A stretch of 62,497 nucleotides of DNA, the filler included. It is 7 parts of 7 records of this genome, joined end to end, with 100 filler letters (N's around TTAATTAATTAA, not from the genome) between each part and the next. Parts side by side here need not be neighbours in the genome. Positions count along the whole stretch, not along the records: positions 1 to 12,186 come from SRR31156797_27270; 6 more parts are not named here. One strand, written 5' to 3'. The notes beneath the pieces were generated by a model, which made no database searches, was not told the DNA's origin, and saw only the letters and a program-made list of their open reading frames with translations. This document shows, piece after piece, positions 2,186-13,365 of the stretch. Each line of letters begins with the position of its first letter. Positions within the stretch are counted from its first letter, which is position 1. A program made the position numbers and the translations under genes.

Positions 2186-2596
2186 ATGTCATTTAATACC
2201 GGTGGAAACAACAGGCAATTGATGTCGGAAATCAACGTTACACCCCTTGTGGATGTAATGCTGGTCCTGTTGATCATTTTCATGGTGGCCGCCCCCATGA
2301 TGATACAGGGTGTTGATGTTAATCTTCCGAAAACCGAGGCCAAAAACATTAAGACGTCGGATGAACCCCTCATGTTGACGGTGAACAGTAAAAAGGAAAT
2401 TTTCCTGGAAAGCCATAGAATTCCCATGGAAGGCCTGGAAATAAAAATTCGTAAAATCTTTGAGAACAGACGGAATAAGGAGGTGCTGTTGCGGGCGGAC
2501 AAGGATATCCCCTATGGGTTTGTCATTAATGTCATTGCCAGCGTGAAAAAGGCGGGAATCGAAAAGCTGGGAATGGTTACCGAACCTGTGGACTGA
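2186..2596 (+). CDS. tolR: TolR
   Basis: MSEINVTPLVDVMLVLLIIFMVAAPM, LRADKDIPYG. Confidence 0.95.
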   Translation: MSFNTGGNNRQLMSEINVTPLVDVMLVLLIIFMVAAPMMIQGVDVNLPKTEAKNIKTSDEPLMLTVNSKKEIFLESHRIPMEGLEIKIRKIFENRRNKEVLLRADKDIPYGFVINVIASVKKAGIEKLGMVTEPVD

Positions 2597-2601
2597 TTTT
2601 G

Positions 2602-3444
2602 ATGGAAGGCATACAGGTAAAAACCAGATCGGATCGCGAGATGGAACCTAAGATGAGCCGGTTCATATTGTTATCCCTTCTTCTTCATTTGGGGGCTTTG
2701 TCCCTGCTTCTTTTCCTTCCCGATCCCACTTCCACCCGAAAGATGAGCGGACCCACGGTTTACGAGGTAAACCTGGTCAGTTTACCCGCAGCCAAGCCGA
2801 AAGCATCGGCAAGATCCACTCAACCCGAAAAGACCGCAAAAAAAGTGTCCGGCTCAAAAAAACCGGTGGCGACCAAAAGGATCAGCACGCCCCGGAAAAA
2901 AGAAAAACCCGTTATCATTGGAAAAAGAACGGTTGAAAGAAAAAAAAGCACCCCCAAGAAAAAACCTAAACCCAAAAAGCCCAAGGTATCCCCATCCAAA
3001 CTCATAGACCAGGCTGTGGCGAAGATCAAAAAAAATGTCAGAACCCAAAAGAAAGAGCAACACCTGGACCGGGCTATTTCCAAAATCCAAAACAGTGTCA
3101 AAAAGTCGGAAACAGCCGGTACGGTAGGCGGGTCCGTGGAAGGGTTTTCCTTCCGCCTTTACCAGATGGAAGTGGAAGTGCGGATCAAGGACAATTGGCA
3201 GTTTGCGGTTGAACTTATCAGTCCGGCCAAACGAAAAGACGTTGAAGCCACAGTGGTCGTCAAGGTCAATCAAGATGGCACCATCTTAAAATCGTGGTTT
3301 AAGGACCGTTCAAGCAATGCCATCTTCGACGCTTCGGTCATAAAAGCGGTGGACCGATCAAATCCACTCCCCCCTTTTCCGGAAGGGTATAATAAGCGCC
3401 AGGATGAGATGGAAATCAGGTTCAATCTCAGTGAACTGGATTAA
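2602..3444 (+). CDS. tolA: TolA/TonB-type energy transducer
   Basis: N-terminal TM helix with SLLLH, Lys/Pro-rich linker, C-terminal SSNAIFDASVIKAV..PLPPFP; lies between tolR and tolB. Confidence 0.85.
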   Translation: MEGIQVKTRSDREMEPKMSRFILLSLLLHLGALSLLLFLPDPTSTRKMSGPTVYEVNLVSLPAAKPKASARSTQPEKTAKKVSGSKKPVATKRISTPRKKEKPVIIGKRTVERKKSTPKKKPKPKKPKVSPSKLIDQAVAKIKKNVRTQKKEQHLDRAISKIQNSVKKSETAGTVGGSVEGFSFRLYQMEVEVRIKDNWQFAVELISPAKRKDVEATVVVKVNQDGTILKSWFKDRSSNAIFDASVIKAVDRSNPLPPFPEGYNKRQDEMEIRFNLSELD

Positions 3445-3488
3445 AATTGAATTGCTACACAACATTAATGGCTGGTGGAGGTTAATAA

Positions 3489-4799
3489 ATGAGACGGACA
3501 CGGTTCCTATTGGGATGGTTTTTTGCTTGCGTTCTGCTCTTCTTTTGCTTGGAGGGTGTCACATCCGCGCGTATCTATATCGATATTAATGCCCCCTCCG
3601 TACCGAAATTCAATATCGCCATCCCGGATTTCAAAACCCTAGGGGGAGACAACAAACGTCCGGCATTGTCCACCGAGCTTTCCGGTGTTATAAGCAACGA
3701 TCTCGATTTGAGCGGTTATTTCAACCCCCTGGACAAAGGGGCGTTTCTGGAGGAAAAAGACGGTCCCCTCAAGGGAAAGGATATCAATTTCAAGGACTGG
3801 TCCGTCATCGGCGCCGAGCTTCTTTTAAAAGGCGGCTACATCTGTGTGGGCAATCGCCTGGAAGTTGAAATCAGACTTTTCGATGTCTTCCGGGGGCGCC
3901 AGATCCTGGGCAAGAGGGCACTGGGGAAACTGGATGAATACCGGCATCTGATGCATCGGCTCTCAAATGAAATCATCCTCAAACTGACCGGACATGAAGG
4001 TATTTTCCTGACCCGCCTGGCATTCGTGGGGACCGCCACGGGACAAAGGGAAATCTATGCTTGCGATTACGACGGACACAACGTCAGGCCCCTGACAAAG
4101 GACAAGAGCATCGCTCTTTTGCCCAGATGGTCTCCCGATGGGAAAAAGATTGTTTACAACTCCTACAAAAATGGCGGACCCATGCTTTACCTGAGAGACC
4201 TGGTCACCGGGGCTTTCAGACGTCTGTCGGGCCGGTCGGGACTGAACATCGGGGCATGCTGGGCCCCTGACGGCAAAGAACTGGCCTTGACCATGAGCCA
4301 CAAAGGGAATCCCGATATCTTCACCATCGATCTTCAGGGAAAAATCCAGAAACAGCTTGTGGAACATTGGGGAATTGATGTGTCTCCGGCGTTTTCCCCC
4401 GACGGCACCAGGCTGGCGTTTGTCTCCAACCGATCCGGTTCTCCGCAGATCTATCTTCTGGAAATTTCCAGCGGAAGAGTGGACCGTCTCACCTATGAAG
4501 GCCAATACAATACATCCCCCGCCTGGTCAACGCTCAACCGGATCGTCTTTGTGGGAAAGACCGACGGAAACTTTGATATCTTTACCATGGAACCGGACAG
4601 CGGCCGAACCAAGAGACTCACCGCGGATGCCGGCAATAACGAGGACCCCTGCTGGTCACCGGACGGCAGGTATATCGCCTTCAGCTCCAACCGAACCGGC
4701 CGGTACCACATCTATATCATGAACGCCAACGGGCGGACCCAGCGACGGGTAACCTTTGAAAAGGGAAAGCAGACATCCCCTTCCTGGGGGCCGGAGTGA
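3489..4799 (+). CDS. tolB: TolB beta-propeller protein
   Basis: Signal peptide, IAIPDF N-domain, repeated PxWSPDG (PD40) motifs. Confidence 0.95.
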   Translation: MRRTRFLLGWFFACVLLFFCLEGVTSARIYIDINAPSVPKFNIAIPDFKTLGGDNKRPALSTELSGVISNDLDLSGYFNPLDKGAFLEEKDGPLKGKDINFKDWSVIGAELLLKGGYICVGNRLEVEIRLFDVFRGRQILGKRALGKLDEYRHLMHRLSNEIILKLTGHEGIFLTRLAFVGTATGQREIYACDYDGHNVRPLTKDKSIALLPRWSPDGKKIVYNSYKNGGPMLYLRDLVTGAFRRLSGRSGLNIGACWAPDGKELALTMSHKGNPDIFTIDLQGKIQKQLVEHWGIDVSPAFSPDGTRLAFVSNRSGSPQIYLLEISSGRVDRLTYEGQYNTSPAWSTLNRIVFVGKTDGNFDIFTMEPDSGRTKRLTADAGNNEDPCWSPDGRYIAFSSNRTGRYHIYIMNANGRTQRRVTFEKGKQTSPSWGPE

Positions 4800-4891
4800 T
4801 TGTCAAAAGAGGATAATGGAAAATGATATCCTTGAGGCATCCCGCACAATTAAGATGCTGAAACCGATCATTGTCAGTCACTTGAGAAAAC

Positions 4892-5407
4892 ATGAAACCG
4901 TTTCTAAAAATCCTAGTCGGTTGCTGCTGGATCGCCCTGCTGCTCTTCTTTGCGAGCTGTGGGGCTCCCCAGCGTTATTGGCCGCAAGAAGACATAATTG
5001 GGTCGGAAACGGCCGTGCCCGTTGGTAGTCGAGTCGTGCTTATCGCATCACGCAGCAGCGATTTCAAGAAACTGCTCGTGGCAAAATTGCATGAGCAACT
5101 CGCCGCTGTCGGCTTGGCGCAGAAAACAATCGGCGTTAGGGGACTGGCGCAGGTCGATTCAACAGACTATGCGGCTGTGGTTATTATCAACACCTGCCTT
5201 GCATGGGGATTCGACCATGATGTTCAGACATTCTTGGACCGCCAAAAGACGGACGAAAACATTATTGTCCTTACCACATCCGGCAATGGCGCCTGGCTCC
5301 CGGACCAGGGTGGAAAAGACTTTGACGCCATTTCTGCTGCATCGACGATGACATCCGTGGACACGGTAGTTGGAAATATCATGGCCGGCATCCAATCACG
5401 GCTGTAA
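4892..5407 (+). CDS. Hypothetical lipoprotein with an alpha/beta (flavodoxin-like) pattern; not Pal
   Basis: Lipobox LFFASC after a hydrophobic stretch; RVVLIAS...DYAAVVIINTCLAWG...IIVLTTSG; no OmpA-like GHTD motif. Confidence 0.7.
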   Translation: MKPFLKILVGCCWIALLLFFASCGAPQRYWPQEDIIGSETAVPVGSRVVLIASRSSDFKKLLVAKLHEQLAAVGLAQKTIGVRGLAQVDSTDYAAVVIINTCLAWGFDHDVQTFLDRQKTDENIIVLTTSGNGAWLPDQGGKDFDAISAASTMTSVDTVVGNIMAGIQSRL

Positions 5408-6193
5408 TACGAAAACCAAAACCGAAGAATTGATGGCAACTTTTCTGAAAGCTATCGGGCCGGCTTGCTGAATTCCATATTCCGGCAGCCCGAAAAAGTG
5501 AAGACAAAGCGTTTTCCGATCTGCTGAACAAACTTGTGGGATTTGCGAAGAAGCAACAGCTGAGGCGCCCTGAACATCGAAGGGCGCAAAGAGCTGGCAA
5601 TTGCATGATCGCCACCGCCCAAGGCATTACGCTAGGGGCGGTGACTAGCACAAAACCAACAGGTCAAGGGGTGCAGAAAATTCCATGTCACAGGTCATTT
5701 CTGAGACCCTATCTTGTTGAAACCTGACCACTATATACTGTGGTCGACTCAATATCACTTTTATTCCAAATATCAGCAGTAACAACAGGTTTAGCAGAAG
5801 CGATGTATGTTGGAGGTATCTCAGTGTTTCGTTCCCCCTACATTTGTTTGGCATCCATGACATATCTCAACCTTCGATTCGCCCCTCTGAATGATGATAT
5901 CACACGTTTTACCTCGGTTGACCTAAATAGCAGTTAGCACAACCCCTCCAACGCTGATAATATAAATGCGAAGGAGCACGGTTAAGCGTCAAGGAAGAGC
6001 CTTCCTTTGGTACGCCATTTGGACCTGGCCCGAGCGTAAAATGGGGTTACAGATTGATTAGGGTAATAACAACGCAAAATCCCGCCTTTCGCTGAAGAGT
6101 AATGGGGTTTTTGTGCGATCATAGACCACTTCTAATCCTCTTTCCCCTCTCGAAGTTGAAAGACGAAGATTGCTTCAGAATCAAGCGTAATTA

Positions 6194-6219
6194 GTGGCCG
6201 GAATGGGCCGGAATATGCA
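6194..6219. mobile_element. Orphan IS21-family-like terminal repeat
   Basis: GTGGCCGGAATGGGCCGGAATATGCA (reverse complement TGCATATTCCGGCCCATTCCGGCCAC): TG..CA end with tandem GGCCGGAAT units, as in IS21 ends; no istA/istB nearby. Confidence 0.6.
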
Positions 6220-6359
6220 CGTGTGTACTATATTGGCAGTTAAATGATTTTGTGATTTGCGGTAATATCCTTAAAAAGAGATGATAAAATTTGTTCTGAT
6301 CTACGTGCAGAATTAGGCAAGATAGCGCTGGGAAATAATTAACTTAAATCTATTGGTTA

Positions 6360-6497
6360 TCAGTCATCTTCTAAAACTTTCAGGAGTTCACTCCATTCTC
6401 CAGATCGTTTAATCTCTTCCAAAAGTTCTTTCTGGGATTTTAGCTCAAATTCATCTGATTCGAGACCATATAAACCATCGTCATATTGCTCAATCAT
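6360..6497 (-). CDS. 45-aa acidic small protein MIEQYDDGLYGLESDEFELKSQKELLEEIKRSGEWSELLKVLEDD (below the ORF-track cutoff)
   Basis: Read by hand; ATG 10 nt after the upstream TAG, with GAGG RBS overlapping that stop; 15 D/E versus 5 K/R. Confidence 0.65.
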   Translation of the reverse strand: MIEQYDDGLYGLESDEFELKSQKELLEEIKRSGEWSELLKVLEDD

Positions 6498-8648
6498 AAC
6501 ATTTCCTCTATGTTTGTATAGGATCTTTCTTGAACTTGTCTATATATACAATATCGTCATCTTTCGCAGATTGTAAAGAATTAGTTTTTAATGTTTTCAG
6601 CATGTCATTAAATGCAGCATGAATAACGCCTCTGAGGTTTCTATTTTCTGTTTCATGCTTAAGCTTGCGGAGCTTAGTAGCGGACGAATCAGATCCCACA
6701 TTGATTACTCCGATTACAGGCAATGATTTCCATGCAGCTGGAATTCTATCTTCTTTATCAGCAAGTTTGTCAAAATATTCTGTAATTGTAGGATGATATA
6801 ATGGAACTGAATAGAGCACCTCATATTTAGTCCCGGTTTTGGAAGCAACGTAAATATATTCATTAGATTCGTTCGCAATATATGTTATTGGGACACCTCG
6901 TTTATAAGCAATGCCCGCGTTCCCAACTCCTGGTTCCAAAACGAAATCCCAGCTGATATCTTTATCGCGACCATTTGTTTTCTTTAAGCCCTCAAATATT
7001 TCTAAACTATTTTTATGTCTGTCATAAGTCATGAAAGTCACACAGAATGTTTCATCCCCGAACCCACAAAACTTTTTATAAAGATCGTTGTACAAAGCAT
7101 TTATTATTTCAGATATTCGTTTAATAGGTATACCATTTCTCTTCATCCTTGTGGATCTGTAATTTGTAAGTAGAGCGCTGAAGGCATCGGTCTCGCCTTT
7201 AATATCGGACATAGGGAAATTTATGGGCATTTTTTCGCCAGATAATTCCCATGATACAGAATATTTATATCCAACAATGGGGTTTTTAATTTTTAATGCC
7301 CATTCTCCGTTTTCTGTAAATATTAAGTTGTTTTTTTCATGCTCTTGCATATAAGGGTCAGGGTCCCATGAGCCTCCTTCAAAAATGAGTTCACCTGAAC
7401 CATCTTTATTTGCATTAAAAATATTTTGATTGAAATATACCTGTAAAAAAGGCTTCCAGCTTTTCTTTTTTTCCGCAAAATCTATGACCAAATTCAGAGC
7501 CTTAATCGGTTGTTTAACAGTAAATTCTGTTGATTCAATAGGAATTTTATTTGAAGAGACCGCCCGAAAATACTCTTCCTTAGTCATAGCAAATGCACCT
7601 TGGGTTTTACTCTCAAAGCTAAAAGACAATGGTTGGTCGATATGCGAGACTGCGTAACCAAAAATTATTATACCTCCTAAACATTTATCATTGTTATTAT
7701 CGTCATTTTTCTGAAAAGTTATTCCTTTTAGCTTAGATGACTGATCAACATCAGCATGTACTATCTTTCCTTTATCGATATACACTTTTATTTGTTGGCT
7801 GAACTTATGCATATTTTCGATTACTTTTAATTCTCCATAATCAATTCTATGATCAGCTGTTCCGTCTTTAGAAATAGATACACGCTTAGTTACAGTATCA
7901 ATACTATATCCTTGATATCGGCAATTTCTTTCAAAAGCTCTGACTTTTTGACCTTCCCTTGTAAATAGTGATATTCCTTTGGGTTTTTTATCAGGTCCTG
8001 TTCCAAGAAAATCATGAGTTATTAAAACTCGACCATTTTTATAGATCGTGATTATATTGTATGAGTTTCTTTCCGAGTTTCTTCTTTTTGTTGAACTGCT
8101 CGCCGATAAAACACCCATTTCGTTTGATTCATCTGGTTCTGATTTTAATCTATAAAAATGTTTGTAATGTCTGTGTCCGTGCAGCACTAAGTCGAAATTA
8201 TTTTTAGTCAATTCACCTAATAATGTACCGGCATTACGCAAAATCAATAAAGGCTCGAAACTAGTAATGCCCTCCTCCTTTGTATAAGGAATTGGCAACG
8301 GGTGGTGGTGCATTAATGCAATTCTTAACGCATGCGCAGATCCTGGTGTATCCATTAGCTTTGTGGTAAGTGAATCAATGCTATATATTTCTTTTTTATT
8401 TATCTTGCCTGTTGCTAACCATAGCTTGCAGTTTGAATCGAAACAAAGAATGAAAATTCCGATATTCCTTAATGTTTCAAACGCCTTTTCTGAGAAGTTG
8501 TTTTCATTCAATTTGTGTTTTGTGCTTAATTTTCGGCAAATTGCTACATAAGCATCTTGTATTATTAACTGCAAATAAATATTAGGTCTCCATTTTTTGG
8601 TAAATGGATTTGTTAGCCACCGACATTTTTCGGCACCCTTCTCAAAAT

Positions 8649-10241
8649 CTGAAGTTTCACCGTATTTGACCCGCGATTTTTCAGGCGACCATGCGCAGCA
8701 AATCCGCCACAAATGATTTACGGGGGAGTTTCTCGTTTTTGTTGCAAACACGATTAAAATCCGGATCCAAGGCGGCCTTCGAAATGATGTGTCTGAGATC
8801 CGAGAAGGCGAAACTATTGCGACCTCTGACTTTATGTCGGCGTTCGGGAGTATTCTCAAGCCGAGCACCATAAATCCAGATAACAGCAGCAGCCATCATA
8901 GAGAAGTTGATATGATTGATGACGGCATGAGCGTTTCGGGCTTGGGTTTTACTGCTCCCAATGTCCTGTTTAAGTTCTTTGAAACCGGATTCGATCTTCC
9001 ACCTTGCGCCATAGTACTCTATGATTTGCTCTGTAGACAAGCTGAGATCAGTAGAAAAAATGGCAATCCACTGAGTTTTTCGAAAAACCCAGACCACACG
9101 GACGGGACATTTGAGGGTTTTAAGCATCAACAGTTTTGTGACAGCCTGCACTTCACGGTAATGGCCATAGAGGAACACGCGATGACATACTGCATCAAAT
9201 CTTATTTGGACAGCTATTTCGGAACATGACCCAAGACGGTCTCCATACTTACGGGTTCTGCCACGTTGTCCCTTTTTGCGCTTCGAAGGCATTGCATAGA
9301 GTACAGTGTTTGAACGTAACCGAGAGATCAAACTAAACAAAACGCTAAGATGTTTGTGCAGAGGCTTGTATAGACCGTTATTTCCAAACCAGCTGTCGCA
9401 AACAACAGTTACCGGGACATTTACAAAATGTGTTGCTAATTCGACCACCATTTCGACGGCTTGTTGTATTTTCGTTTGAAACTTTGAGGTCACTCCAGGG
9501 ACTGTCATGTTTTCTTTTTTGGCCGCGAGCGCCTTTTTGGGCAGATAAAATCGATATGAAAGTGGGATGCAAGCCCATCGGCCTTTGATGATTTTGAGCA
9601 GACCAACAACAACTACGTTTTGAGCCCAAGGGTATTTGGACTGGTTAGCCTTGGCAGCGTGATCGAAAATGTTGGCACATCCGAAGATTTTCTTCCCCGT
9701 TTTCGGGTTGATGAAATCATCAAGAGCCAGCAACAATCGTTCATTTGTCAGAGGCGAAGGAATAATGCCCCATAATTTGCTCCAGAGGTTTCGCCATGGG
9801 AGTTTGTTGGATGCCATGAAAGTATAGAACCGGCGACGATTTACATCCAAACCGAAAAGAGTATTAATGCATCGGAGAACATTTGAAGTAATGGAAGAGG
9901 AGAAAGGGGTAATGAATGCCAGAATGGTATATGCAAACCATCTGCTCCTTTCTTTGCCGAGATTAGTATGTGAGAATACTTTTTGAAGAGGACCAAGGAT
10001 ATCGTTTAGAATAAACATTTTGAACCATTCCTTTCTGCTGAGATATCAAAAACTTATGCGCATATTTTAGCACAAAGAAAGGGTGAGGTTCAAGAAAAAA
10101 GTCAGCCTATGTAGCTGAATTTATTGGCATATTAATTGCGAATTTTTCAAATTCCATGCCAGTTTTTGAGGCCCGCACGAACAAACCGAGCGGAAATGCG
10201 CGCTGAAATTCTGGCAGTTTAAAAAAAGTGTGAAACTTCAG
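8649..10241 (-). mobile_element. Complete 1593-bp insertion sequence (DDE type, IS701/IS4-like clan; family not resolved)
   Basis: TIRs CTGAAGTTTCAC (8649-8660) and GTGAAACTTCAG (10230-10241); 8-bp direct repeat CTCAAAAT at 8641-8648 and 10242-10249. Confidence 0.93.
8681..10018 (-). CDS. DDE transposase, 445 aa
   Basis: LALDDF, VVCDSWFG, YYGARWKIESGFKELKQ catalytic D/D/E pattern; enclosed by TIRs. Confidence 0.92.
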   Translation of the reverse strand: MFILNDILGPLQKVFSHTNLGKERSRWFAYTILAFITPFSSSITSNVLRCINTLFGLDVNRRRFYTFMASNKLPWRNLWSKLWGIIPSPLTNERLLLALDDFINPKTGKKIFGCANIFDHAAKANQSKYPWAQNVVVVGLLKIIKGRWACIPLSYRFYLPKKALAAKKENMTVPGVTSKFQTKIQQAVEMVVELATHFVNVPVTVVCDSWFGNNGLYKPLHKHLSVLFSLISRLRSNTVLYAMPSKRKKGQRGRTRKYGDRLGSCSEIAVQIRFDAVCHRVFLYGHYREVQAVTKLLMLKTLKCPVRVVWVFRKTQWIAIFSTDLSLSTEQIIEYYGARWKIESGFKELKQDIGSSKTQARNAHAVINHINFSMMAAAVIWIYGARLENTPERRHKVRGRNSFAFSDLRHIISKAALDPDFNRVCNKNEKLPRKSFVADLLRMVA

Positions 10242-10848
10242 CTCAAAATATGCCTTAAAGGGTAAACGGGTTAGAATTCCAAATGAGACATTTCCCCACA
10301 ATCCGATATCATGATTCCCTGGTACGATAAATAATTCTGCATTTGATGCGTTTGCCAAATCAGTTAAATAATTTTTAGCTTTTCTAAATAACTTAGGCCT
10401 TGGAAAATCTACTAAATCTCCGCTTATCGCTATGACATCAGGTGACTGATTTTTTATTTTTTTGAATAGTGCAGTCCACAAATCATCACTAAACGGGCTG
10501 CCAAAATGCAAATCAGAAATATGTGCAATTCTGCAATGAATTGGAAAATTGTCAATTTCCTTTGCCATATACATGCCTCCAGTAAGATTGTAAATCACAA
10601 TGGATGCATTTGAAGGTGCATCAATTAAGCCCCAATTTTTGGATTATTCCAAATAGAAGTTGAAATTAGGTGATAAAAATTCCCTTTTTGTGAGGAGACG
10701 AATATGTAATTTGACCTTGTGTGTTAATGAGAAAGACCACCCATGATGTTGTGGAGCCTGGTCTTGAAGTGAAAATGGCGAGGATGGGAGCAGAAAAAGG
10801 ACCAGGATATAGAGAAGTGGCCGTAATAAAATGGGGTCAAATCTTAGC

Positions 10849-11120
10849 GGGCTGTTGCCCAAATGATTTTGCCAACATACTTTGACCATAACAATCCTTC
10901 TTAATATCATAAACGCCAAGTGCTTCCATGGTTGCAGCATCTAACCTATTTGTAATATAATGTTTACATATTTGTCTTAATATGATAATATTAATGGCCA
11001 AAACGCCAATAGAGGATTTCTGCCATGATGGGTCACCAACCAAATTATCAAAGCAAGCTTTTTATCACCGGGTTCAACCTTGATAAACGGATTAGAGACG
11101 ATCATCCTTTAAGAAAAATC
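10849..11120 (+). mobile_element. IS1182-like remnant: left end plus the first 32 transposase codons (11025-11120)
   Basis: MMGHQPNYQSKLFITGFNLDKRIRDDHPLRKI resembles the IS1182/DUF772 N-terminus; candidate end GGGCTGTTGCCCAAA at 10849-10863; similarity stops abruptly. Confidence 0.7.
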
Positions 11121-11200
11121 CGTTCAAGTTCATCGGACAGTGTCTCAAAAGCTGAAACAGTCTCGACAAATCCATCCGTTATTAAGTATTTTTCTCCCAT
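11102..11200 (-). pseudogene. Probable 5' stub of a second cassette gene (MGEKYLITDGFVETVSAFETLSDELER...), broken near 11120
   Basis: ATG 11 nt downstream of the attC R' box; frame runs into the antisense of the IS1182-like stub and stops. Confidence 0.45.
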
Positions 11201-11211
11201 TGTTTCCGAAC

Positions 11212-11301
11212 GGTTAACGCTGGGTTAACGGGTTTGGATAAAGCTTTCGTAACGAAGTGGAGCGGGCTTTACCCAAACCCCAGTTCAACCCCTTGTAAGC
11301 G
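11212..11301 (-). other. Integron attC-like recombination site (90 bp)
   Basis: Minus strand CGCTTAC-5nt-GTTGAACT...GGGTTTGGGTAAAGC/GCTTTATCCAAACCC...CGTTAAC-5nt-GTTAACC: long imperfect hairpin with an extra base in L'', 3 nt after a stop codon; R'' and R' are degenerate. Confidence 0.75.
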
Positions 11302-11304
11302 CCC

Positions 11305-11886
11305 TCAAAGTTTTAATATGCGACGAATAGCCTCAGTTCCAATACCAACGGCTATTGTTGCGACTATGCTTTCCGTAACACAATATACAGCCAAATCTAC
11401 AAATAGATTTATGGCTAAAGCCGATAGTATATACACTCTGCGGAAAGGAATGATTAGATAGAGCAAGCCTTTATCCAATCGAAACCTAATTCGAGTGACA
11501 TCTATGTTATTCGATTCAAAATCTTCATACGGTTCTGAAACAGGATCAATAAATAGATATTGTAAATAATATTTATAGTAAAGGACTTGTATTATTTGCT
11601 GACGAAACATATTGGTGAATAGACCGCTTGGTATATGCAGATTTAACTGGTTTGGCTCACCATATTTTCGATCTGCATCTTTATTTTCAGGGCAGCCGCT
11701 ATTTGAGGACGTAAATACCAAACTTTCCAACAGCTCCTCTCCAAATATAATCTCTATGAAACAAAGCCATACCCACCGCAGTCTCGGCACCTTATCCTCA
11801 ACTCTATCCCCTCGAAGAAAAATCAAAGAGAAATATTTTTGCTTAATCGGGCTTTGGTTATCAATTACCTTTAAGTAATTTGGCAT
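11305..11886 (-). CDS. Hypothetical 193-aa protein with C-terminal hydrophobic helices; gene-cassette-like
   Basis: AT-rich ORF with GTTAAAC (GTTRRRY) 16 nt upstream and an attC-like site directly downstream. Confidence 0.7.
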   Translation of the reverse strand: MPNYLKVIDNQSPIKQKYFSLIFLRGDRVEDKVPRLRWVWLCFIEIIFGEELLESLVFTSSNSGCPENKDADRKYGEPNQLNLHIPSGLFTNMFRQQIIQVLYYKYYLQYLFIDPVSEPYEDFESNNIDVTRIRFRLDKGLLYLIIPFRRVYILSALAINLFVDLAVYCVTESIVATIAVGIGTEAIRRILKL

Positions 11887-12186
11887 GTTGATCCCAGACT
11901 TCGTTTAACATTAGATATTAACTAGTTGGCATGTTTTTGTTCCATATAGAGACTATGATCGGTTTTTGGTTGTAAGGAAGTTCCTTTTGGGCTAATAACA
12001 AAAGGTCAAAATCTTTGACAAGCCCTGAAGTGTGTTCATTTTGGCAGAAATTCAAAATATCAGCAAGTTAAAAAAAGCTGTGATATCCTCAATTCAGTTA
12101 TATAGAGCGAACCTGAGATATCTGATTCCGTATCTCAGGCTTGGCATTTATTGAGATATATTGAGAATAGCCCATAAGAATCGTTC

Positions 12187-12286: not shown

Positions 12287-13365
12287 GGTCCGTTACCGTT
12301 ATGGTGATCTCTTGTCCGTGTGCGCTGGGTGTAGCCATTCCCGTTGCCCGTCTGGCAGGTATTTCCCTATCCGGCCGCAAGGGGATTCTTGTTCGCGAAA
12401 TCGAAGCCTTCGAGCGGACAGTCGACGTTGACACGATCGTTTTCGATAAAACCGGAACCCTGACACGGGGGCGTTGGCAACTCAATCGTCTGGACTGCCT
12501 GCCAGGGGTTGGCGAAAGGCTTGTTCTCGGCTGGGCAGCAGGGCTGGAAGAGGCGTCCAATCACGAAATCGCACGTTCCATAAAAGCGTATGCCAGACGT
12601 AGGGGCATTTCACCGATACGGCTGGACAAGACCATTGTCTTCCCGGACGGAGTTGAAGGCCATGTGGACGGGAAAATCCTTCGTATCGGGAGCCGTTCTT
12701 TCTGCACAGGGGAGAGTGGCGCTGAAACGCCAGTCCATGAGGAAAAAGAGGGCAGGATGATGTCTCCTGTCTATTTCAGTATAGATGGCTCTTTGGTGGC
12801 TAAACTGCTGTTCGGTGACACGATCCGAACATCCGTGCCGGAAATGGTAAAAACGTTGGCCGCAGACGCCTATGGCCTTCACCTTGTTTCAGGAGACGGT
12901 GGTGAGGCCACCCGTACGGTGGGGCAAATTGTTGAAATTTCATCGACAACGGGAAACCTTTTGCCTGCAGGCAAAGCCGCCTATGTGGAAAAATTAACCA
13001 AAGATGGCCACCGTATCGCAATGGTTGGAGACGGGATTAACGATGCAGCCGCCCTGGCCCAAGCAGGCCTCGGGGTGGCCGTCTATTCCGGGAGCGGTCT
13101 TGCCAAGGAGGCCGCCCACATTACGCTCATGCGCGGAGATCCTGCACAATTGCTTGACTTTTTTCCCTTGGCTCGGCAGGTGAATCGTAAAGTGACACAG
13201 AATCTATGGTGTGCCTGGATATACAACCTGATCAGCATACCCGTGGCCATGAGCGGATTGTTGACACCGTTGTTTGCTGCAACGGCAATGTTGTTTTCCA
13301 GCCTAACGGTGATTGGCAATACGCTGCTGCTTGTCCGGGGGAAGAAAAGCAGAAACAGGTCGTAG
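12287..13365 (+). CDS. Heavy-metal P1B-type ATPase, C-terminal half (Cu+-type residues), 5'-truncated
   Basis: CPCALG, DKTGTLT, MVGDGINDA, YN and MxxSS in the last TM helices. Confidence 0.93.

Follow-up and report, generated by a model that had tools for sequence, protein, structure and literature searches.

Organization of the disrupted gene and the insertion sequence

A 62,497-nt stretch of DNA (the window), made of contigs joined through spacers, was analysed. At 6360-10568 on the minus strand it carries a large gene that is interrupted by an insertion sequence (IS) of the IS701 family and followed by a small open reading frame (ORF). Read across the IS, the gene encodes an N-terminal calcineurin-type metallophosphoesterase, a middle domain and a C-terminal GAF-like domain. 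The translated 5′ and 3′ parts of the gene are called the N-piece and the C-piece. The features are as follows.

6360..6497, minus strand: ORF of 45 aa with a net charge of −10 (mechanical ORF call); candidate small partner by its position behind the large gene
6508..8640, minus strand: 3′ piece of the disrupted gene, 710 codons and a TAG stop, with the second phosphoesterase half, the middle domain and the GAF domain
6508..8871, minus strand: ORF of 787 aa (mechanical ORF call)
6541..7164, minus strand: GAF-like C-terminal domain, C-piece residues 493-700 (family profile)
7165..7947, minus strand: middle domain of about 260 aa, C-piece residues 232-492 (alignments A3 and A4)
8005..8541, minus strand: second phosphoesterase half, C-piece residues 34-212 (local family hidden Markov model, HMM)
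8641-8648 and 10242-10249: target-site duplication CTCAAAAT, an 8-bp direct repeat (family D11) that flanks the IS
8649..10241, minus strand: IS701-family insertion sequence of 1593 bp (terminal inverted repeats and transposase gene)
8681..10018, minus strand: ORF of 445 aa, transposase (mechanical ORF call)
10107..10598, minus strand: ORF of 163 aa (mechanical ORF call)
10242..10568, minus strand: 5′ piece of the disrupted gene, 109 codons with motifs I-III (translation and Pfam Metallophos)

The inverted repeats of the IS were located at 8649-8667 and 10223-10241 (19 nt, 84% complementary). Its transposase matched the NCBIfam IS701 family model NF049999 with an E value of 2.2e-118 (395.7 bits against a cutoff of 170), as well as DDE_5 and DDE_Tnp_1 of Pfam, and the element is present in the window in one copy only. 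The 5′ piece begins with the ATG at 10568, and a GGAGG ribosome-binding site was read from the sequence upstream of it, at 10576-10580. The translations of 10568..10242 (109 codons) and 8640..6511 (710 codons) contain no internal stop, and excision of the IS with one copy of the repeat gave a single frame of 819 codons. The first-pass annotation had proposed that the two apparently unrelated ORFs would fuse in frame in this way (109 + 710 aa), and the translation, the direct repeats and the inverted ends all confirm it. Across the join point the protein aligns colinearly with P0004, its closest intact homologue (732 aa, 38% identity).

The 787-aa ORF owes its existence solely to a frame that is, by chance, open from the interior of the IS into the gene. 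It starts within the IS and covers, in a different frame, the 3′ end of the transposase gene (8681-8871, minus strand). Signals carried by the IS could in principle allow the production of a shortened sensor protein devoid of catalytic activity. Because the insertion separates motif III of the phosphoesterase from motif IV, no active enzyme can be made here, and the window's copy is a dead allele within AT-rich DNA of foreign origin. The disruption looks recent, since neither piece of the gene shows other damage. Among the sequencing runs listed, one DNA run, probably the source, and no RNA run carries the sequence. The empty-site joint was absent from the contig of this run that spans the IS; contigs drop rare variants, so an intact allele may still exist.

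Domains of the joined protein

All five calcineurin-like motifs that had been ascribed to the joined protein were located. Three of them lie in the N-piece (DLH at residue 19, GDLVD at 50 and GNHD at 84) and two in the C-piece (HHH at 111-113 and GHRH at 155-158). The columns that define the calcineurin-like superfamily PF00149 (DxH, GDxxD, GNH[DE], H, GHxH) were invariant or nearly so in an alignment of 60 family sequences. Pfam Metallophos matched 59 of these 60 members, the exception being the truncated C-piece of the window; with the 5′ piece the match had an E value of 2e-12 (48.4 bits against a cutoff of 21.5). Apart from Metallophos, the Pfam scan of the 60 members returned one GAF_2 match and nothing else.

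The 18,950 models of NCBIfam were searched with the two pieces and with five intact homologues. NF053862 DS9_1, annotated as "anti-phage phosphoesterase", was the top model for all five homologues (E values of 8.5e-18 to 1.1e-24), and it also matched the N-piece (2.4e-8) and the C-piece (8.7e-11, model positions 360-478). The DS8 model came second, with matches in four of the five homologues (1.3e-11 to 3.7e-4; three of them at 1e-6 to 1e-11 and the fourth at 3.7e-4) and none in P0006. The housekeeping models LpxG, SbcD and YaeI reached 2.9e-6 or weaker in the intact homologues; in this ranking of models, DS9_1 was ahead of them by at least 12 orders of magnitude. No CpdA-type NCBIfam model was found at E≤1e-3 for the window pieces or the five homologues. 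The DS9_1 scores were at most 87 bits against a cutoff of 420, and scores so far below equivalog cutoffs indicate kinship at the level of the domain, not membership.

No transmembrane segment was found, the highest Kyte-Doolittle score of any 19-mer being 1.22, in agreement with the first-pass annotation. A membrane anchor within the phosphoesterase insert was considered and rejected, as a strongly hydrophobic 19-mer occurs in just 7 of 59 members.

The middle domain, proposed in the first-pass annotation to be beta-strand-rich, is marked by the block P-x-x-G-Y-x-Y-x-x-x-W, in which P454, Y460 and W464 do not vary among the 60 aligned sequences. It gave no Pfam match beyond chance in 24 members and no sequence match in the PDB, and an Atlas search with the homologue P0028 returned scores at chance level. 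The idea that it is a second GAF domain was rejected (hhalign probability 0.5%). Genome G601 encodes six paralogues of about 580-700 aa (L168, L172-L176), each with two copies of the middle domain and with neither a phosphoesterase nor a GAF domain, indicating that the middle domain is independent and mobile. Each copy in these paralogues follows what appears by eye to be an XRE-type helix-turn-helix, for which phmmer against the PDB gave E values of just 0.14-0.64. A lone middle domain was also seen in L171 (367-1953, plus strand), after a His/Cys region that is caspase-like by eye and had no phmmer match in the PDB, and in L170 (250-1101, minus strand), after an N-terminal hydrophobic segment. 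No obvious small partner ORF lies downstream of L170 or L171.

The C-terminal domain has the conserved columns G571-x-G573-x-x-G576-x-A578 and P613. When a 24-sequence profile (A2) was compared with the PDB, the top five matches were all GAF domains: 1ykd (1.7e-5), 5w10 (5.8e-5), 3e0y, 4mcw and 3trc (to 9.8e-3). Pfam GAF_2 was found in 10 of the 24 members, and an Atlas feature search with the C-terminus of P0028 pointed, as a lead only, to GAF-named clusters at 0.90-0.93. The proposed C-terminal GAF domain (PF01590/PF13185) is therefore upheld at the level of the family profile.

Family members and exchange of the N-terminal effector

A word search with the 3′ piece returned 78 homologues. 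An exhaustive search with the same piece returned 873, 349 and 46 metagenomic clusters at E≤1e-3, 1e-10 and 1e-30, respectively. The majority of the homologues are 700-930 aa long, and the matches cover query residues of about 54-690. Both the middle-domain and the C-terminal profile were found in 211 of 237 collected family proteins. Among these 211, 204 have a phosphoesterase, four have other N-termini and three are fragments. The order phosphoesterase, middle domain, GAF is thus kept in 204 proteins, as expected from the first-pass annotation.

The four proteins with other N-termini provide the most telling result of this analysis, the swapping of effectors. P0195, P0235 and P0236 (about 970 aa) carry SEFIR/TIR and PNP_UDP_1 domains ahead of a complete cassette of middle domain and GAF, supported among others by BLASTP (1e-26). 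In P0237 (760 aa), Trypsin_2 stands ahead of the cassette. The swapped N-termini matched the PADLOC models for bSEFIR (1.3e-43), PDC-M60C (1.6e-27), the CBASS PN-superfamily effector (7.7e-19) and LmuA of Lamassu (1.8e-15), as well as RT-Protease_XI and Avs1b. A midpoint-rooted FastTree phylogeny of the cassette was built from 81 sequences. The four swapped proteins formed one clade (support 0.995) that was nested with phosphoesterase-bearing proteins (SH-like support 1.0), and the larger clade that holds both the window's protein and these four had a support of 0.862. According to Kaur et al. 2020 (PMC7159879), the calcineurin phosphoesterase, PNPase, TIR and trypsin domains are interchangeable conflict effectors, and GAF is among the nucleotide-binding domains of conflict systems.

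The small downstream ORF

The 45-aa ORF starts 10 nt past the TAG of the large gene, with GAGGA at 6504-6508, 6 nt before its ATG. It had no family match in Pfam, PADLOC or NCBIfam, and its exact sequence is missing from a collection of 15 billion proteins.

To see the position across the family, we considered the 80 related loci with both the A2 and the A3 profile and kept the 76 in which the sequence continues for 250 nt or more behind the gene. In 70 of the 76, an ORF of 35-180 aa lies on the same strand and begins −20 to +160 nt from the stop. Such an ORF satisfied a stricter rule (45-180 aa, same interval) in 60 of 66 unique loci; among control genes taken from the same related loci the count was 226 of 373 (odds ratio 6.5, p 5e-7). 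The co-occurrence of a small downstream partner that had been suggested is thus a positional constant of the family. Mechanical ORFs are frequent in GC-rich DNA, so the stronger evidence for a partner is that of sequence. When all ORFs were compared with one another, the downstream ORFs matched each other 191 times, against 30 matches elsewhere; several of the latter also fall immediately behind the large gene, outside the positional interval (L033, L085, L102, L118).

The partner ORFs fall into eight subfamilies; on the large-protein tree, five of them (A, B, C, E and F) are each monophyletic. Gaps to the large gene are about 2-30 nt, with some overlaps. In eight loci scanned as empty, a partner ORF overlaps the stop (L009, L027, L029, L081, L087, L097, L102, L118); partners also lie behind the gene in L162, L163, L167 and L169, and none is obvious in L016/L108. 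What the partners have in common is only a pattern read by eye: a short strand and a Gly turn lead into a second strand, in which hydrophobic residues alternate, and then into a helix. Comparison of partner profiles between subfamilies gave hhalign probabilities of at most 19%. In L030/L126, three tandem paralogous partner copies follow the large gene within 2439-3950, with starts at 2439, 2855 and 3696. Taken together, the two-gene nature of the family is well supported.

Homology of the window's ORF to the other partners was tried and could not be demonstrated statistically: phmmer found only the ORF itself, no subfamily HMM matched it, and the best hhalign probabilities were 13% and 4%. The ORF described as an acidic 45-aa partner is present, with its charge of −10; acidity is not a conserved property, as acidic partners number 19 and basic ones 9 among the 44 compared, of which the window's ORF is the shortest and the most acidic.

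Distribution and genomic neighbourhoods

Genomes were searched with the middle-domain profile, and the frequencies are lower bounds because only part of the first-look candidates, 6 or 17 per genome, was scored. At least 4 of the 151 genomes from the genus of L012 had the domain, as did at least 1 of 37 from the order of L017, at least 3 of 401 from the phylum of L017 and at least 6 of 401 from the phylum of L031. It was not found in any of the five relatives that are closest by TolB, and the same query recovered five of five known carriers as a positive control. The distribution of the family in genomes is rare and patchy.

The neighbours of the gene vary. Mobile or defence-type genes were found at 8 of 23 loci, an uncontrolled count. 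They include M78 with patatin, a C5-methylase with DUF6119, S8 with AAA, capsid with resolvases, and PIN_8, SocA_Panacea, an Eco57I-like gene and IS66.

Surroundings of the locus in the window

The window contains six contig spacers (12187-12286, 19632-19731, 28378-28477, 41487-41586, 46990-47089 and 57321-57420), each made of paired runs of 44 N flanking TTAATTAATTAA, with stops in all frames. Genes on the two sides of a spacer are consequently not neighbours. Position 12186 is the last of the contig with the locus; the P-type ATPase fragment that follows it is therefore no neighbour of the gene, and the "hydrolase" ORF at 12301 belongs to a different contig.

As had been noted, the disrupted gene is far more AT-rich than the tol genes: its G+C content is 33-37%, against 47-54% for mobB-tolQRAB and a background of about 52%. 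In the nearest relative, genome G327 from the phylum of L017, mobB-tolQRAB is syntenic with the window at 48-76% identity (72% for TolB). Downstream of tolB, G327 has different genes, with no match to window 4892-12186. The tol-pal cluster thus appears to be interrupted by foreign DNA in the window. The first-pass annotation had also called the module mobile. The patchy distribution and the lack of the module at the same site in the relative support this only indirectly, and no full-length copy was found on the plasmids, phages and viral contigs searched.

The further features of this stretch are listed below.

4892..5407, plus strand: lipoprotein-like ORF of 171 aa after tolB, with no Pfam match
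10587..10614, minus strand: promoter-like hexamers TTCAAA-16-TACAAT upstream of the disrupted gene, a weak match to the consensus
11025..11120, plus strand: peptide MMGHQPNYQSKLF...DHPLRKI, which may resemble the N-terminus of IS5/IS1182-type transposases
11305..11886, minus strand: ORF of 193 aa with a hydrophobic C-terminus, within the AT-rich stretch that holds the disrupted gene and upstream of it

The promoter-like hexamers are no evidence by themselves, because 25 such sites were counted against 16.6 ± 4.2 in shuffled sequences. The peptide at 11025-11120 gave no tblastn match against plasmids. The 193-aa ORF has no Pfam or PADLOC match, and related loci show no counterpart by Pfam. An attC site had been reported near the gene; an Rfam scan of 4800-12186 returned no match, and no other search was aimed at attC.

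Comparison with known systems

The first-pass annotation had not recognised the architecture from any named system, and indeed no PADLOC, Pfam or NCBIfam entry covers it. The matches in PADLOC-DB v2 were limited to the N-terminal motifs (at most about 90 residues), with the models PDC-S60, PDC-S10 and "Effector Endonuclease".

The closest comparison is with DS-9 and PUA-Cal-HAD (a PUA-Calcineurin-CE protein, DS-9A, with a HAD phosphatase), which share with the family the best-scoring curated phosphoesterase model and the fusion of a sensor domain to a calcineurin-type effector. In PUA-Cal-HAD (bioRxiv 10.64898/2026.01.15.699771), the calcineurin-type effector degrades deoxynucleoside diphosphates (dNDP) to monophosphates (dNMP) once the sensor binds a nucleotide ligand. 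In those systems, however, the sensor is a PUA-like domain at the N-terminus, whereas here it is the C-terminal middle domain and GAF. No PUA-type Pfam match was found in 60 members, positions 1-190 of DS9_1 were never matched, and the family proteins begin about 10 residues before motif I. The partner here is a protein of about 45-100 aa and not an enzyme; no HAD match was found among 131 neighbours of 23 loci, and the scores lie far under the model cutoff. Since it has neither a PUA domain nor a HAD partner, the family does not belong to DS-9 or PUA-Cal-HAD.

DS-8 (NF053861, metallophosphatase-NACHT) is likewise a single protein of large size, whose metallophosphatase effector is N-terminal and whose sensing or assembly part is C-terminal. 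The family has no NACHT domain or P-loop, and its match to DS-8 is limited to the first ~90 residues; it is not DS-8 because the NACHT domain is absent. For both DS-8 and DS-9, catalytic mutants of the phosphoesterase lose defence (PMC13092281).

Class III phosphodiesterases and GpdQ (CpdA/Icc, Rv0805) share the motifs of the calcineurin-like fold and are the nearest solved structures over motifs I-III, but they are about 270-330 aa long and have neither the middle and GAF cassette nor a small partner. The CyaB2 cyclase and the animal cGMP phosphodiesterases, which gave the best C-terminal PDB matches, likewise fuse GAF to a nucleotide-metabolising catalytic domain. In these the GAF domains are N-terminal, usually tandem, and joined to other catalytic folds, whereas the family has a single C-terminal GAF. 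Finally, bSEFIR, the CBASS nucleosidase, Lamassu LmuA and the Avs and DRT proteases have the same effector domains as the cassette-bearing sister proteins, but their sensor and partner parts are absent here.

A phosphoesterase-GAF defence architecture was not found in the full-text literature searched for it, which leaves a prior description possible. Calcineurin-CE and its architectures are reportedly defined by Nicastro et al. in 2023.

Interpretation and alternative explanations

On balance, the sequence comparisons favour the view that the locus is probably a horizontally acquired two-gene conflict module of the anti-phage or anti-mobile-element type, inactivated here by an IS701-family element. 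This view is based on DS9_1 as the nearest model of the phosphoesterase, the effector swapping, the patchiness, the empty site in the relative together with the low G+C content of the gene, the neighbourhoods and the linkage of the partner. The anti-phage role that had been suggested gains support from the swapping and from DS-9A as the nearest model. Under this reading, the large protein would be a cytoplasmic sensor-effector of three parts. The N-terminal metallophosphoesterase would be an effector of the "conflict effector" kind, kept inactive by the middle domain and GAF as a regulatory or sensing cassette until a cue arrives. The cue may be a small molecule in the GAF pocket, a protein or a phage product. 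Once released, the effector might hydrolyse nucleotides or a nucleotide-derived metabolite and so abort the infection, and the small partner, which has an N-terminal hairpin-like motif and a helix and is co-inherited with the cassette, would modulate it as an inhibitor or an adaptor. Each of these mechanistic details is clearly less certain than the conflict module itself. The anatomy, the family and its patchiness, the exchange of effectors, the linkage of the partner ORF and the kinship of the phosphoesterase are shown by the data, while the role in defence, the substrate, the ligand and what the partner does are inferred.

Several observations weigh against this reading. No full-length copy was found on the plasmids, phages and IMG/VR viral contigs searched, and the genomic frequencies are lower bounds. 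Only ordinary neighbours were found at 15 of 23 loci, and the 8 of 23 above stand without a control set. In Roseateles/Rubrivivax, the chromosomal setting is similar in L002, L004 and L006, those of the related loci L002-L006 that were scanned for neighbours, so the gene looks vertically inherited there. The DS9_1 scores are low, a search of the PDB with the family profile over the N-terminal motifs placed GpdQ first (2.1e-12) with Rv0805/Icc at about 1e-11, neither the two domains of the cassette nor the small ORF matched any PADLOC model, and the window's own C-terminus has no individual Pfam GAF match, its GAF call being that of the family profile. The 45-aa ORF has no demonstrable homology to the other partners and could be a chance ORF.

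The PDB ranking is in line with a housekeeping class-III cyclic-nucleotide phosphodiesterase (CpdA/Icc/Rv0805-like) that uses its own GAF domain allosterically and has no conflict role, a bacterial counterpart of the eukaryotic phosphodiesterases under GAF control. Several sources label homologues as "CpdA", the top GAF matches are the cAMP-binding GAF pair of CyaB2 and a GAF of a cGMP phosphodiesterase, and some loci lie among ordinary metabolic genes. Among the NCBIfam models, however, DS9_1 and DS8 lead and no CpdA-type model appears, and the cassette also occurs on SEFIR/TIR-PNP proteins and on a protease, neither of which is a cyclic-nucleotide hydrolase. Within genera and phyla the gene occurs rarely and in a patchy manner, CpdA-type enzymes have no tightly linked small partner gene, and the conserved columns of the GAF domain do not include NKFDE, the signature of GAF domains that bind cyclic nucleotides. 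We regard a housekeeping role as unlikely. A selfish addiction pair of the toxin-antitoxin kind, in which a large toxic nucleotide-degrading enzyme and a small labile antitoxin cause post-segregational killing, seems slightly less likely still. It would account for the tight linkage of a small, fast-evolving gene with probable translational coupling (spacing of about 2-30 nt, with overlaps in some loci), for the patchy distribution, and for the knockout by an IS, which is a frequent fate of costly modules. But the small gene is downstream here, while in most type II pairs it is upstream; addiction modules are common on plasmids, and no copy was found on those searched; and exchangeable effectors on a large sensor cassette are a trait more typical of immune sensor-effectors. 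An addiction pair and a role in defence are not exclusive.

It is also conceivable, though we consider it doubtful, that the window's 45-aa ORF is a chance frame behind a single broken gene, without a two-gene module. The ORF shows no significant similarity to any other partner, is missing as an exact sequence from the large protein collection and is the shortest of the 44 partners compared, and downstream ORFs of similar size follow 61% of the control genes. Against chance stand its position on the same strand 10 nt past the stop with GAGGA ahead of its ATG, and its 45 open codons, which by general expectation seldom arise by chance in AT-rich DNA (about 37% G+C). In nearly every locus of the family, the AT-rich L163 and L169 among them, a partner ORF is found at this position, and a hairpin motif of the same kind (G-hydrophobic-x-hydrophobic) is common to the partners. 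It is thus quite likely that the ORF is a real partner; were it a chance frame, the conflict-module reading would still be compatible with it.

Implications for the family

The dead copy in the window is of value only as a pointer to the family. We tentatively suggest that the cassette of middle domain and GAF with its small hairpin-helix partner might represent an undescribed family of bacterial immune sensors. It would take interchangeable effectors of death or depletion (the calcineurin-type phosphoesterase, the trypsin-like protease, and SEFIR/TIR with a nucleosidase), and GAF would be the receptor of a small molecule derived from infection. We hold this possibility less firmly than the conflict module. 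If true, it would add a new sensor cassette to the catalogue of bacterial immune sensor-effectors and a new context for the calcineurin-type "conflict effectors" recently shown to act in defence (DS-8, DS-9, PUA-Cal-HAD). The family would then offer a tractable two-gene system for GAF sensing in infection and for the role of the tiny partner, and the GAF domain, a classic second-messenger domain, would be brought into anti-phage sensing.

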